Positions 17,915 to 60,018 of a DNA stretch of 64,000 nucleotides are shown here, piece by piece. Under the pieces are notes generated by a model. The model had not been told where the DNA came from. It worked only from the letters and a program-made list of their open reading frames with translations, and searched no databases. Every line of letters starts with the position of its first letter. The first letter of the stretch is position 1. The stretch spans positions 154,504,001-154,568,000 of the forward strand of contig OZ024742.1 in NCBI GenBank assembly GCA_964016885.1, written 5' to 3'. The stretch comes from Eledone cirrhosa (lineage: Eukaryota). Both the position numbers and the translations under genes were made by a program.

Positions 17915-18790
17915 AAGCTGTTACTTAAATATAAGTATGTGTTCGTACACATATATATGTATACAGACGTACAGTAGTATGTATATATATATATATACAT
18001 ACATACATATATATATATATATATATATATATGTACGTATGGATTTACCGAACAGTTATTATACATATATGTATACAGACGTACAGCATCCTGTCTTTGT
18101 CAGTGTTGAACAAAAGAGCAGCGATGGTTGCTAAACACTGTACGGCTTCATTCGGGATGTTTGTTTACAAACACAACGAGCATTATAATAAATGTTCGGT
18201 ACATCCATACGTACATATATATATATATATATATATATATGTGTGCATGTATTTATCTATATATATACATACTACTGTACGTCTGTATACATATAAATAT
18301 GTACGTATACATACTTATATTTAAGTAACATCCGTACTAAGAGTGAGAAATGAAATTTCGTTTCATTTTTTCCGTTTATCGTTTTCGGTGCACCCGGCCG
18401 ATTAACTTTACTCGATATGCAAATTAGGCTGCTCAGCCGTTAATATGCATAATAAAGTATATACTTTCAGACTTTCAATCATCTTATATGATTGTATACG
18501 GTGATGACGATGGCTAATAAGCTTGAAACTAGTACATCGTTCCTTTGTCACTGTTGAACAAAAGAGCAACGATGGTTGATAAACACTGTACGGCTTAATT
18601 CGGGATGTTTGTTTACAAACACACCGAGCATTATAATAAATGTTCGGTAAATCCATACCTACATATATATATATATATATATATATGTGTGTGCATGTAT
18701 GTATATATATATACATATATATATATATATATACATACACCTCTACGTCTGTATACATTATGTGTATGTACGTATACGTACTTATATGTA
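17915..18790 (+). mobile_element. Dispersed retrozyme-like repeat (about 1.5 units of about 448 bp, with inverted 5' segment) containing a decayed hammerhead
   Basis: CTTTGTCA..GTTGAACAAAAGAGC recurs at 18095 and 18543. Octamer at 18417. HHR at 18498-18540 (ACGGTG-ATGACGA-TGGCT AATA AGCTT-GAAA-CTAG-TA-CATCGT, C3>A). 17915-18085 is an inverted copy of about 18185-18330. Confidence 0.75.
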
Positions 18791-21700
18791 TATATATATA
18801 TATATATATATATATATATATATATATATATATATATATATATATATATATATATATATATATATGAGAGTGTATGTGTGCGTGTGTGTGTCTTGGCTAA
18901 AAGTGCAAAGCTGCATATTGGTACACGAACTTGCAAAATCTTCCTTCCAACTGTAGCCGTTTTTAGGTCCAAAAATATTGGCAATCCTTCCCTCATGTAA
19001 TGAAAATTCTTATCATGAATATTAGTCATCAATATTTCTGACATGGTGATTTGTTGGGCACTTGTGAACCAAGCATTGGAAATATATATTTCAACACAAA
19101 TATCATAGATCAATTATATAAATGGAAGGACATTGGAAACCTAAAAACAGGATGATGACATGTGACGTCCATGATCATAGATCATTTCGATCAGAGCTCA
19201 CCTACGTTTTAACAATAGATTTAGCGATTAAATACACCACAAACTTTAGCAAACTCTTCCCTTCAAAACCAAATACCACAACCATCAACACAATTCTGAA
19301 CCAAACGTTTTCATTAAAACTACGCACTATCACGTCTACGATCACCTCCACATTAAGCAACCTATTGTGTCATGAAGACTCTCTATCACATCCACTGTCA
19401 GCAGGAACATGAATGAACGCTTTCTATCAAAACAAACAATCACTACCATCACAAAACATTATATCCAATTGGTACTATTAAACTAACAAGCTCAATCCAC
19501 ATCACCACAAGTTGAGACCCATTGTTGCAATAAGAATAATCAAACATCACAACACACTGTCACAAAGAAAGACATGATCCACCTATTACCATCACGAACT
19601 ATAATCACCGACACCACCACCATGAACAACATGTATCTGTTGTTACTATCCAATCCTACTACCTCAAACACCTCCACAAACATGTTATAAACAAAACAAA
19701 CTGATACAACCACTCTAAAAATATTAACAAAACAAGGAAAAATTACCAACATCAAAACGGCTAGATATCAGAATAGCCACCTCTAAAAAGAGGATCCTAT
19801 TATTACCATCTAAGGGAACAATCACAACAGCCGCTACAAAATACAACCAGTTGCTACAATTAAACCCAAATATAACAAGCCTGAAGGATTTATTACCAAC
19901 TAAACGCGCAACTAACACAAACACCACCAAAAGAATCAATAACATTTTACGTTCCAAAACAGCGGTCACGATCAGCTCAAATATGAACCAATGATTGCAA
20001 TAGCTACCAACCCACCACAAAGTCAAATCCACCTACATGAACATTACTCGAGCTACAGTAGCCCTACCAATTATCATTATCCAGAGACAAAAATGGATCT
20101 GCGATTTGATGTCGATACAAACTCATTAGGAAAATATTTCTGATTTGAAGTATTAACCAACACTCCTTTAAAATCACATTTAAAATCTTTTTAAAAATGA
20201 AGAATAGGATTAACAACAATGTATTGCAGTTTTTGTAAAGAAAAACAGGATTTGAGCACGGCTGGAATAAATTTAATGATAAAGTTATTAAAATGGACCT
20301 CATATAACAAAAGTTTGTGTCATTTGATTTACATTTTAGATATATTTCTGGTTAAAGGCATATCTGTGTTTCTATCCATTTATCCCTTTCCTTCTCGCTT
20401 CCTTTCGTTCTTTCCTCACGCACTTACATGCACGCGCTTATCTGTTATTTCAGTGGATGAGCATGATTTTGCGTACTGACAAGAAAAGGAAAATTGGTAT
20501 ACGGCGAATGATTGTAAGAACATGCAATTGAAATTAGGTAAGTAAAGTTGTAGATATATCACAGTTTAATTAATTCATTAAATATTAAATAAACTATATA
20601 AAGAACATAAAGTTTCGCTCAATGGGTCATTAGTAAGAGGAATATATTTTAATGCAATTACATGGAATAAAAAAATATATTGAAACAAGCACAGTTCTCT
20701 ACTGAAATAGTAATAGCTCAATTAAAGATATTCTACTGAATTTGTAAAAGGAGGATAAGTGACAATAGCAGAATATTAACATGTATTGAATGAATGTAAT
20801 TGTATGTTGAAAGTTGGTGATATTTTGCGATTAACATTGCAAATTCGCTTTTATTGTATAGGAAGAAACCTGCTGAAAGGAAATAATTCTTAGAAGCCAG
20901 AATATAGGTATTTTTTATCTTCTGCATTATTATTGCTATGCATCACAGAAGAAAATTAATTTTATAAAGATTTCAATATATATATAAGGAAAAATATGGA
21001 ATTCGAAAAAAATTGACATAATAGTATTTAAAGGACATTCAAACTATTTTTGTCTCACAACATTTCCCCTATTTTCGAACAAGTAGTTTCATTCGATATG
21101 CATTTGCAATGTTTTTAAGGTCAGATTTAAGTAGGGGAATAGCTTATACGGTCTAGCATTAATCCTTTGTATCATTATACTTATCAGTATTATTATCTTC
21201 ACTGTTTGCATTTAATACATTGCCGAATACAGATCTGTGTGCCTTTTATGTGCGCTTTTCCTCGTAGATCACGGGGTTTTGTTATGTTTTGCATGTTTCC
21301 TTTTTATCATTCCTAGAACACTTATAGTAAATTTTGTTCAAATACCTAATTGTCAGTCGGTCAAGTCTCACCAAAAATCAATAATTGTTTAACTATGTAG
21401 AAAACCACACTGTCTGGTTTGAAATGTTCAATTCGTTGGTCACATTTGACAATAATGTCACATATAATCTTGACATGGTCATTTTATATAACAGTTTCTA
21501 GCTTGGGCGCTTTCCACTTGTTTTTACTTTCAAGGCCGTATTTTCTACATAATTGCCAATAAACGGTGTTTGCTATGTTAGCTTTGTGACGTTTGTAGTG
21601 TCATGTTCTAACTTTGTGCACTGGCTCGTGATATGCCACGCATGTACTCCTTTTTCAGGCACATTCTACACATTTCAGTTATATTTGTGTTCTCAATCAT

Positions 21701-23410
21701 GTTTTTCACATAATTTATCCTCAAGGCTTGCACCTGCGCTGTCATTTCTAGTTTAAAGTCACCTCTCTGCATATAAAGTCACATATTCTCATTCTTTATC
21801 AAGCTGGCTTTGATATTCTCTTCTGATATACCACATCCTTCGCAACTGGTGAGTCCTTTCTTTCATTTCTTTCATGCAAAATAACACCTGTCAAGCTCAT
21901 GTTTTTCCTATCCAAGCTTTGAAATTATTTTACTGTTCCCCAAAACTTTCCAGCACCGTAATATAGAATCTTCTAAAGCCAGCTACATCATATTCAATGC
22001 CAGGTTAGCAGGAAACAGATGCAAAATATGGCACGTTGAATGTTTGCGCATACATTTTGCTGTTGTTTTACAAACTGTTTGAGAGACTACGGACAGCCAT
22101 AAAGTAGCTTTATTGAGATCATAACATTGCTTTCCAACTATTGGTGCCATTCATAGCAAATAGCTCAGGTCTGTACCACTAAGACGTATTTGAAAACAAT
22201 CTGCACCATTCTCCAACGCCCTTCCCCATCAATAGCAACAATTGGACCAGCATCAATAACAATATCAGCTGCAGCAGCAGAACTGGCCGAAGCAAAAAAA
22301 AAAAGAACACCAATAGCAACAACGACAACTTCAACAGCATCAATAGCTGCAGCTGCAGCAATATCTATTTACATAAATAAAAAAAAAGACAATGTATCCC
22401 CAGCTTTAGCAACCTAATTCCCAAACCACAATACGACGTACCAGAAATTGCCTCTTCCTCTTTCAGACATGTCGAACATCAAGAGAGTCGAAATTATGCT
22501 GTAGCCCAATGTCCATAAACAAAGGTAGAATAAAATGAAAATATCATCAAATACACCTATACAAAAACACGCCACCACGACAACTGGGTTGCTTGGGAAA
22601 CATCTATATCTCTCATGATACGGAACCAGAACATCAGTCGCTATTGCTAGAGGTAGCCACCAATGCAGACCTAGTCTTCAGTGTAATAACCGTTGTGGCC
22701 CCGATAAGAACGTCTGCATCCCTGTTGTACGCTGGCAATATGTGTCTATGTAGCTGATAGGAGAAAAGGGTACAAAAGTCCCACGAACTTGCTAAGACTT
22801 TCAAACACTTTCATAGCTACAGACGAGAATTCCAGTTTGTGCCTGTTGGACATGGGAAAACCGAAGCGGGTAATCAATATCCTATGTAGATAACCTATTA
22901 TGTATGTAAATATAATAGACTAGTGTTTCGCAATGAATAATGGTCGGCTCGCCGGAGCAGGAATTTATTATCTGTAAAGTCGATGTGCTTAGGCACATTA
23001 TCAGAGACAAGACAATTGACTTTGCCGGACCACAAAGATTGCCAGGACCATATTAATTACCTATTTAAGTGGGAGCTGATGATGACCCGTCTGTAATATC
23101 TAATGGCTTTTGGAAAAGCGATTATAATAGTTTTGCTAAGTTTTACCGAGGGACTAACCATAGAAAAAAAAACAGATTAGAAGAACAGCTAGTTAGAATC
23201 TTAAAAGAGGCTTACAGAATGTGTTATATTTCTTTCCTCACTTCGTTACCATTTTCACATATTTTCTCCACAGTACTCTGCCATATTTCCATTTGTGTGA
23301 TTTATCGTTATGATTATGTTGCCTACAAGCATTCAATTAGTTTCCATGGTGGAATGACTTTCTCTACTTCTCTGCAAATCTACGCACCCCTACTTTCATG
23401 TCTATCTATC

Positions 23411-23677
23411 TATATATATATATATATATATATATATATATATATATATATATGTGTGTGTGTGTATGTATGTGTGTGCATATATATATATATATATATA
23501 TATATATACCTATATATATACCTATATATATACAAATACATACATACATACATATATATATACACACATATATATATATATATATATATATATATATATA
23601 TATATATATATATATATATATATATATATATATATATATATATATATATATATATATATATTTATATATATATATAT
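23411..23677. repeat. (TA)n-rich microsatellite flanking the 468-bp array
   Basis: Direct reading. Confidence 0.95.
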
Positions 23678-59485: not shown

Positions 59486-59694
59486 TAACAAAGTTCTTTC
59501 GTTGCACATCTACAACATCATAAGTGGTACTATTATGTTCCTCCGGTTGTATTGTATATTTACGCCATCTTTATTTTAAAAGATCTATATATAAAAACAT
59601 ATATATATATATATAAAATGGCTTAGATATACAATACAACAGGAGGAACATAATAGTAACACTGATGATGTTGCAGATGTGCGACGAAAGAAAC
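59486..59694. mobile_element. Short foldback with hammerhead motifs in both arms
   Basis: 59494-59570 is inverted at 59618-59692. Plus arm: TAACA-CTGATGA-T-GTTGCA-GATG-TGCGAC-GAAA-GAA. The minus arm supplies GAAA-GAAC-TT-TGTTA. Confidence 0.75.
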
Positions 59695-59761
59695 ATATAT
59701 ACATGCGCACACATATATATATATATATATATATATATATATATATATATATATATATATA

Positions 59762-60018
59762 TATATGTGTGTACATATGGGTTTACCGAACATTTATTAT
59801 AATGCTCGTTTTGTTTGTAAACACACAGCCCAAATTATTAGCCGTACAGTGTTCGGCAACCATCGTTGCCCTTTTGTTCATCACTGACAAAGGAACGATG
59901 AACTAGTTCCTACCTTCTTAGCTGTCATCAGCACCGTATACCTTGGTGTCAGATGATTTAAAATATATACTTTCCTTATGCATATTAAAGGCTGAGCAGC
60001 CCAATTTGCATATCGACC
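59762..60018 (-). mobile_element. Partial copy of the retrozyme-like family with a decayed hammerhead (59895-59937)
   Basis: Minus strand ATGCAAAT..GCTGCTCAGCC..ACGGTG-CTGATGA-CAGCT AAGA AGGTA-GGAA-CTAG-TT-CATCGT. Confidence 0.8.

Follow-up and report, generated by a model that had tools for sequence, protein, structure and literature searches.

Organization of the repeats

The 64,000-nt window analysed here (Eledone cirrhosa, contig OZ024742.1, positions 154,504,001 to 154,568,000) contains a tandem array of short non-coding repeats, family A, and three dispersed insertions of a related repeat, family B, with a type I hammerhead ribozyme motif in each unit. Taken jointly, the results give us reasonably good confidence that these repeats are retrozymes with an internal small nuclear RNA (snRNA)-type promoter, which would cut their own RNA and be copied by a Penelope-like enzyme into (AT)n targets. 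A preliminary description of the window had already located the three dispersed copies correctly. The features of both families are listed below; 'short' and 'long' are two classes of 3' end, defined further on.

Family A
23696..26401, plus strand: tandem array of 5.8 units of 468 bp, flanked by (TA)n, with a 3' end of the 'short' class
23696..23706, plus strand: octamer-type element ATGCAAAT-TAG, like the host U6 upstream element
23732..23743, plus strand: TATA-like stretch, 41–43 nt after the octamer start, predicted to be part of a promoter
23789..23833, plus strand: type I hammerhead motif, GUU site, predicted cut after 23826
24089..24118, plus strand: hairpin directly before the 'long' 3' end, predicted recognition or start site of reverse transcription

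Family B, insertion 1
47404..47527, minus strand: inverted, 5'-truncated arm, stopping at the 'short' end and adjoining (TA)n
47536..48020, plus strand: main arm, slightly more than one 446-bp unit, stopping at the 'long' end
47614..47624, plus strand: octamer-type element ATGCAAAT-TAG
47630..47634, plus strand: TCAGC, predicted core of a proximal sequence element (PSE), in the same place as the TCAGT core of host U1/U2/U5 promoters
47656..47661, plus strand: TATATA, 26 nt after the core
47696..47738, plus strand: type I hammerhead motif with intact core, GUA site, predicted cut after 47732

Family B, insertion 2
17917..18063, minus strand: inverted arm
18087..18790, plus strand: main arm of ~1.6 units, octamer at 18417
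18498..18540, plus strand: hammerhead motif with C3 changed to A (CUGA is AUGA at 18504)

Family B, insertion 3
59762..60018, minus strand: truncated unit between (TA)n runs, octamer at 60011
59895..59937, minus strand: hammerhead motif with GGAA for GAAA and one stem II pair broken

The five full units of the array differed from the first unit by 0–2 bases. The octamer-type element recurred each 468 bp (24164, 24632, 25100, 25568 and 26036), and five further copies of the hammerhead motif followed in the window at the same step. B insertions 2 and 3 were each 89 % identical to insertion 1 across the aligned part. As the preliminary description held, the array unit and the dispersed copies could be aligned and shared motifs, and this extended beyond the ribozyme: the segment from the hairpin to the TATA-like stretch had 96 identical positions over 150/142 nt, with z 11.4 in comparison with 300 dinucleotide shuffles, and the segment after the ribozyme gave z 4.1.

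The type I core (CUGANGA, GAAA and UH, in the type I helix order) was found in the six A copies and in the B copy at 47696; it was missing from the copies at 18498, where C3 is lost, and 59895, both of which are probably inactive. The copies in the window are decaying, and two of the three dispersed ones are probably dead. The preliminary description had called the core fixed, which was true of one dispersed copy in three. It had also reported that stem I changed from AATATTG/CAATATT to ACGATG/CATCGT and stem II from GTTGT/ACAAC to AGCT/AGCT. Both changes were as reported in the copy at 47696–47738, which has an ACUAGU palindrome, but both broken-core copies carried ACGGTG (with a G·U) in stem I. 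That the two strands of each helix changed together was correct for 6 of the 8 pairs that differ between A and B, which are compensatory; the U·U mismatches of B had been overlooked, one at the closing pair of stem II (G-C in A) and one at the seventh pair of stem I. The window alone offers a single contrast, A versus B. The class of element, its Penelope-type ends and its promoter-like motifs had no place in the preliminary description.

Hammerhead identity and retrozyme class

An Rfam scan of the window returned no match at gathering level. All six A motifs matched Hammerhead_HH9, a model of another hammerhead subgroup, with 35–37.7 bits (E 6e-6 to 4e-5; gathering score 52), and no B motif was among the best 150 of the 203 Rfam matches. 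MicroRNA matches in the window were discarded as TA-repeat noise. The A and B units (446–468 bp) lack a coding frame and occur both in tandem and dispersed, and circular folds of the A and B monomers had z values of about −9.9 each (against 40 shuffles).

Genome-wide counts were made over the 3.0-Gb genome that contains the window, each with a control. The pattern for the A/B type of motif (CTGANGA-N10-30-GAAACTAGT) had 40,685 matches compared with 38 for its reversed control. Patterns with other helix III letters gave 2,361 matches (control 6) and 1,047 (control 54), and octamer-linked patterns gave 1,397 (control 26) and 2,833 (control 4); these sets overlap. In 600 kb of unselected DNA there were nine B copies across the ribozyme, four of them with an intact pattern. 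Clustering of 226 distinct segments placed 113 in B and F together, 41 in C, 28 in D, 20 in A and 14 in E, with 10 singletons. The preliminary description had proposed that at least two subfamilies (468 and about 445 bp) have amplified; the number is larger, with at least four further families.

Because the units are non-coding, the motif counts far exceed the controls and the self-paired circular folds match the description in the available part of PMC7229834, the repeats are almost certainly non-long-terminal-repeat (non-LTR) retrozymes, forming a superfamily of several families. According to that part of the source, these elements are likewise short non-coding tandem repeats of low GC with a type I hammerhead, a highly self-paired monomer, a palindromic helix III loop and tens of thousands of copies, and the axolotl HHR_Amex2 shares with B a U·U at the base of helix II. 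Their units are 170–400 nt, shorter than the 446–468 bp found here, and promoter-like motifs and two fixed ends, both present here, go unmentioned in that part. The element is therefore of a known kind, and the two fixed ends and the snRNA-type motifs are what is new.

Self-cutting is the part of this reading on which two observations bear unfavourably. The dominant B motif is of weak design, in that its helix III is minimal and its helix II has a U·U at the base; either weakness gives low monomer activity according to the accessible text of PMC7229834, and B differs from the elements described there in uniting both. In addition, eight of nine Xenopus retrozyme dimers showed no cleavage in vitro.

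Several further observations were made on related repeats. Arrays of family A reached ~30 units, often in two arms oriented away from each other (for example G000:C12:2680526-2694388, C7:76659297-76665808 and C1:5738327-5752443). Loci L221-L246 and L367-L380 contained an older, diverse set of hammerheads whose palindrome is ACATGT and many of which lack an octamer; one of them sits 393 nt after a GIY-YIG-like frame (L377), and some may be pseudo-LTRs. Sequencing run X5, which bears another organism label, contained a few B-like contigs at low depth.

Covariation and selection on the ribozyme

The alignment for the covariation analysis was anchored on the core, with the stems unfitted, and retained 187 of 202 rows from families A, B, C, D and F; 15 rows were dropped for length changes, E and the singletons were excluded, and 177 rows were left after removal of duplicates. 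In an R-scape-like G-test, with a tree from the non-stem columns and 30 simulated nulls, 7 of the 14 stem pairs reached E<0.05, ranking 1, 2, 8, 9, 17, 18 and 38 among 9,045 column pairs. An alignment of genome-wide copies, as envisaged in the preliminary description, gave significant covariation in this test. A separate set of 15 picked copies, which included one mis-cut copy, had 92 % of its cells paired compared with 23–42 % in slid controls, and the covariation score was 0.636 for true partners and at most 0.152 for slid partners. Pair types occurring in at least four rows were standard pairs in 56 of 56 cases, compared with 26 of 73 for rarer types.

The patterns used to pick most rows prescribe the core and in some cases the helix III loop as well, which makes the palindrome of helix III a partly built-in result. 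The loop was self-complementary with letters that differ among A/B, C and F, and C and F were first met through patterns that left most of it open.

Copy numbers followed pairing. The double change in stem II of A was present in 2,603 copies at many loci, and the two single changes in one and three copies; for one stem I pair of B the counts were 16,823 for R·U, 7,689 for U·G, 259 for U·U and 149 for R·G. Unpaired intermediates failed to amplify. Resident copies told a different story: in 12 unselected B copies, departures occurred at 5 of 132 core sites (3.8 %), 10 of 264 stem sites (3.8 %) and 56 of 1,344 other non-diagnostic sites (4.2 %). Since core, stems and flanks decay at the same rate, selection acts via the amplifying lineages and not on resident copies.

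Three results limit the strength of this evidence. Half of the stem pairs (7 of 14) failed to reach E<0.05; pairs outside the structure were ~2.5-fold above the null (38 seen and ~15 expected at the threshold); and the copy counts are clonal, each pair table amounting to one evolutionary event. Misaligned promoter columns were also high-scoring in the tree-aware test. Selection on ribozyme structure, claimed in the preliminary description, is nevertheless supported by the genome-wide data for the amplifying lineages; the covariation claim stands at the family level and needs correction for the copies in the window.

Insertion ends and Penelope-like elements

Copies of A and B stopped at two homologous points, one ~230 nt past the cut site ('short') and one ~290 nt (B) or 304 nt (A) past it ('long'), the latter after a GAAAT..TTTC hairpin. 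Head-to-head pairs of B combined a long with a short end in 20 of 36 cases, the remainder being short/short (4), long/long (2) or with one end unclassified (10); the combination was found in three of five A pairs. The 5' ends were scattered across the unit. In B, 85 of 110 ends were followed by an AT-run, and in A 13 of 16 (background 8.8 %), although the 'short' end lies within a TA-rich spacer, which blurs its position and makes its AT-run partly expected. Visual inspection suggested two ends in C and D as well.

Inverted truncated arms and a one-end tail characterize Penelope-like elements (bioRxiv 10.1101/2021.04.23.441226, in the part available), and the available part of PMC11167929 identifies this tail with the segment that separates two internal start sites of reverse transcription, a feature which it considers exclusive to Penelope-like elements. 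Because two fixed 3' ends, long-plus-short pairs and AT targets equal this tail signature, A and B were very probably mobilized by a Penelope-like enzyme, and the end pattern makes a Penelope-like element the candidate partner. The partial tandems, the inverted 5'-truncated arm, the one-end tail, the AT-rich or microsatellite targets and the hammerhead motifs are shared with Penelope-like elements and their pseudo-LTRs as characterized in the accessible portions of these two sources, PMC4209133 and bioRxiv 10.64898/2026.07.22.740005. Unlike Penelope-like elements, A and B have no reading frame and have full helices I and II, and their tail is ~57–70 nt instead of the 30–40 nt given there. Penelope-like, GIY-YIG-bearing elements were numerous in the genome: two endonuclease queries, one with a Pfam GIY-YIG match, gave 16,175 and 23,263 candidates. 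It counts against the proposed partnership that no sequence likeness to A or B was found in six 3' regions from four types of Penelope-like element.

Other stretches of the genome with Penelope-like traits were noted in passing. The segment 58728–59210 of the window is a head-to-head inverted pair between (TA)n runs, with CTGAAGA...GAAA in the arms (58914 minus, 59025 plus); its motif also stands after a GIY-YIG-like frame in locus L009, so it is probably a pair of Penelope pseudo-LTRs. Matches between B and L009 reflect a B copy lying inside that locus. A pseudo-LTR-like stretch at 59286–59710 contains, at 59662, a minimal hammerhead and, near 59500–59580, part of a copy in inverted orientation, and its motif was also found after a GIY-YIG-like frame in locus L118. 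An abundant Penelope-like family (L172, L175, L183, L189 and others) carries, 330–455 nt after the frame, a hammerhead variant in which the core has U3-A8, helix II has a U·U at its base and the palindrome is ACCGGT; the available part of PMC4209133 describes this U3-A8 change. The reverse-transcriptase frames in the window (55769–58533 and 36419–37543) were rejected as partners, having no Penelope-like match by translated comparison.

Promoter-like motifs within the unit

The majority sequences of all six families contained the element ATGCAAAT-(T/G/C)AG, the octamer-type element, with TCAGC, TCAGT, TCACC, CCAGC or CCACT at +16 of the octamer and a TATA-like box near +41 to +43. Host snRNA loci served as the standard: 13 of 40 U1/U2 loci were listed, of which 8 distinct ones were used, together with 8 of 20 U6, 7 of 12 U5 and all 8 U6atac loci. 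TCAGT was found at −56 to −58 in all eight U1/U2 promoters and a TATA-like hexamer near −30 in seven. A matrix built from the U1/U2 promoters gave 10–27 for left-out U1/U2 promoters and 8.0–16.7 for four held-out U5 promoters, and matched no U6 promoter at U6's own position. Applied at +16 of the retrozyme octamer, it gave 11.5 for D, 7.7 for F, 4.0 for E and 0.8 for B (background tails 1e-4 to 4e-3); a PSE-like core at host TATA spacing was accordingly seen in D, F and E, weak in B and C and absent in A. The octamer-plus-AG element, ATG(C/G)(A/T)AAT(T/G)AG, stood at −76 to −78 in at least five U6 loci among the eight listed (three distinct promoters), and with one change in one of eight U6atac matches.

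By host spacing, transcription of B insertion 1 is predicted to start at ~47686–47688. A start always at the 5' end of helix I was considered and rejected: it agrees with B, D and F, whereas A and C, with an octamer-to-core distance of ~99 nt, do not fit. Reading of the host promoters led us to abandon the idea of a vertebrate-like PSE far downstream. The host snRNA promoters (L281-L340, L461-L473) have TCAGT near −57 and a TATA box near −30 in U1/U2/U5, and an octamer-like element near −77 and a TATA box in U6; U1, U2 and U6 also have in common, near −260, a distal motif resembling T(T/A)ACCTCCCTT.

A number of points detract from the promoter assignment. Family A missed the U1/U2 matrix (median −12.7, tail 0.17, best match at +16 in 0 of 16) and C was weak on it (−5.3, tail 0.03). 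The combination of motifs seen in the retrozymes was present in no host gene examined, the octamer being absent from U1/U2/U5, and the octamer-to-TATA distance is 46–48 nt in U6 as opposed to 41–43 nt in the retrozymes. Shared motifs could reflect plain descent, and D and E had been found by requiring the octamer. With these points taken into account, the motifs probably form a working internal snRNA-type promoter.

The best of the alternatives, which we nonetheless regard as unlikely, keeps the same retrozyme and the same Penelope partner and dispenses with the promoter: RNA would arise by host read-through, and the motifs would persist as RNA structure or by descent. Promoterless retrozymes are the published default, animal retrozymes seeming to lack promoters according to the accessible part of a 2020 review (PMC7761336), the motifs do fall in predicted hairpins of the circle, and A lacks a core match to the host matrix. 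Three motifs at fixed spacing persist, however, across families that share less than ~62 % identity with one another, they match host snRNA promoters found independently, and of two sets of 30 motifs collected without requiring it, 16 and 10 had the exact octamer upstream.

Less likely still is a U6-type polymerase III promoter, whose transcripts would terminate at a T-run close to the long 3' end, full units coming from occasional read-through. The octamer plus NAG occurs among host genes only at U6 and U6atac (in the loci listed), and T-runs adjoin the long end at monomer positions 298 (A) and 293 (B). Against this, the octamer-to-TATA spacing is 4–5 nt below that of U6 and the core-to-TATA spacing is the same as in U1/U2/U5; the template for an array has to be the entire unit, but T6-T7 runs lie inside two strongly amplified B subfamilies. 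Polymerase II is favoured because of the motif spacing and these internal runs. Spread as satellite DNA by recombination or DNA circles, with stem pairing due to old ancestry or DNA hairpins, would account for the long near-identical arrays and the even decay of inserted copies, but is highly improbable given the fixed 3' ends, ragged 5' ends and AT targets, the compensated variants amplified at many loci without intermediates, and the single-stranded catalytic core common to all families.

Returning to an internal snRNA-type promoter, a close parallel is newt satellite 2 (Coats et al. 1994), which reportedly has an octamer and a PSE and a start ~47 nt before the cut; the start predicted for B is ~45–47 nt before it. 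This satellite is cited as carrying an snRNA promoter in the part of PMC2220036 available, and as cited there and in PMC2114352 it is a hammerhead repeat in tandem, transcribed by polymerase II from an snRNA-type promoter inside the repeat, as is predicted for the present repeats. The arrangement here differs, as judged by description: the octamer precedes the core by 16 nt, like at host U6, with a TATA box downstream. A literature search, with supplements and subscription journals outside its scope, found no paper on such retrozyme promoters or on this kind of host.

Proposed mechanism

From the anatomy, counts, covariation and motif matches observed, we infer a cycle of transcription, cleavage, circle formation and copying by a partner enzyme. 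The octamer, core and TATA box would direct RNA polymerase II to initiate a short distance before the ribozyme, with read-through into the next unit. Two ribozymes would then pair via the palindromic helix III and cut, by known hammerhead chemistry (dimer cleavage is modelled in the available parts of PMC4209133 and PMC7229834). The cut monomer would contain the promoter of the next unit and would probably be circularized. Reverse transcription from two fixed internal sites, ~230 and ~290–304 nt past the cut, would run a variable distance round the unit and so would give truncated, multi-unit and head-to-head insertions in (AT)n. High copy number is reached solely by lineages that keep their helices paired, and inserted copies decay evenly. 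Whether an ancient superfamily captured a hybrid host promoter inside its unit, with a U6-type octamer and a U1/U2-type core and spacing, such that two-unit insertions start their own circular RNA and a Penelope enzyme copies it from the two fixed sites, appears to us evenly balanced.

Other features of the window

A non-LTR retrotransposon lies at 55769–58533 (plus strand; Pfam RVT_1, E 8e-22), ending in (AAT)n and with a shifted C-terminal frame that has the look of a restriction-like endonuclease. Further retroelement frames lie on the minus strand at 36419–37543, with a weak RVT_1 match, and at 8396–9100. A match to the Rfam Histone3 stem-loop at 43245–43289 (plus strand; 28.6 bits, E 5e-4) is below the gathering score of 34. 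Unrelated short tandem repeats occupy 28092–28462 (93 bp), 54308–54745 (206 bp) and 15874–16091 (111 bp).

Significance

Covariation by itself is expected for a hammerhead and is ordinary. Two questions about animal retrozymes become testable. As to who copies them, Penelope-like elements are named as a strong candidate in the accessible part of PMC7229834 (2020), and their role is argued from co-occurrence and trees in that of bioRxiv 10.64898/2026.07.22.740005; the insertion ends seen here themselves show the tail pattern of Penelope-like elements and indicate the presumed start points of reverse transcription. As to how retrozymes are transcribed, six families with motifs matching host snRNA promoters predict the start site to within a few bases. 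A fitness map of a weak, dimer-dependent hammerhead is also provided by the more than 40,000 natural motifs. If the reading is true, these elements would represent a SINE (short interspersed element)-like parasite that solves the loss of its upstream promoter by circular permutation, as newt satellite 2 reportedly does.

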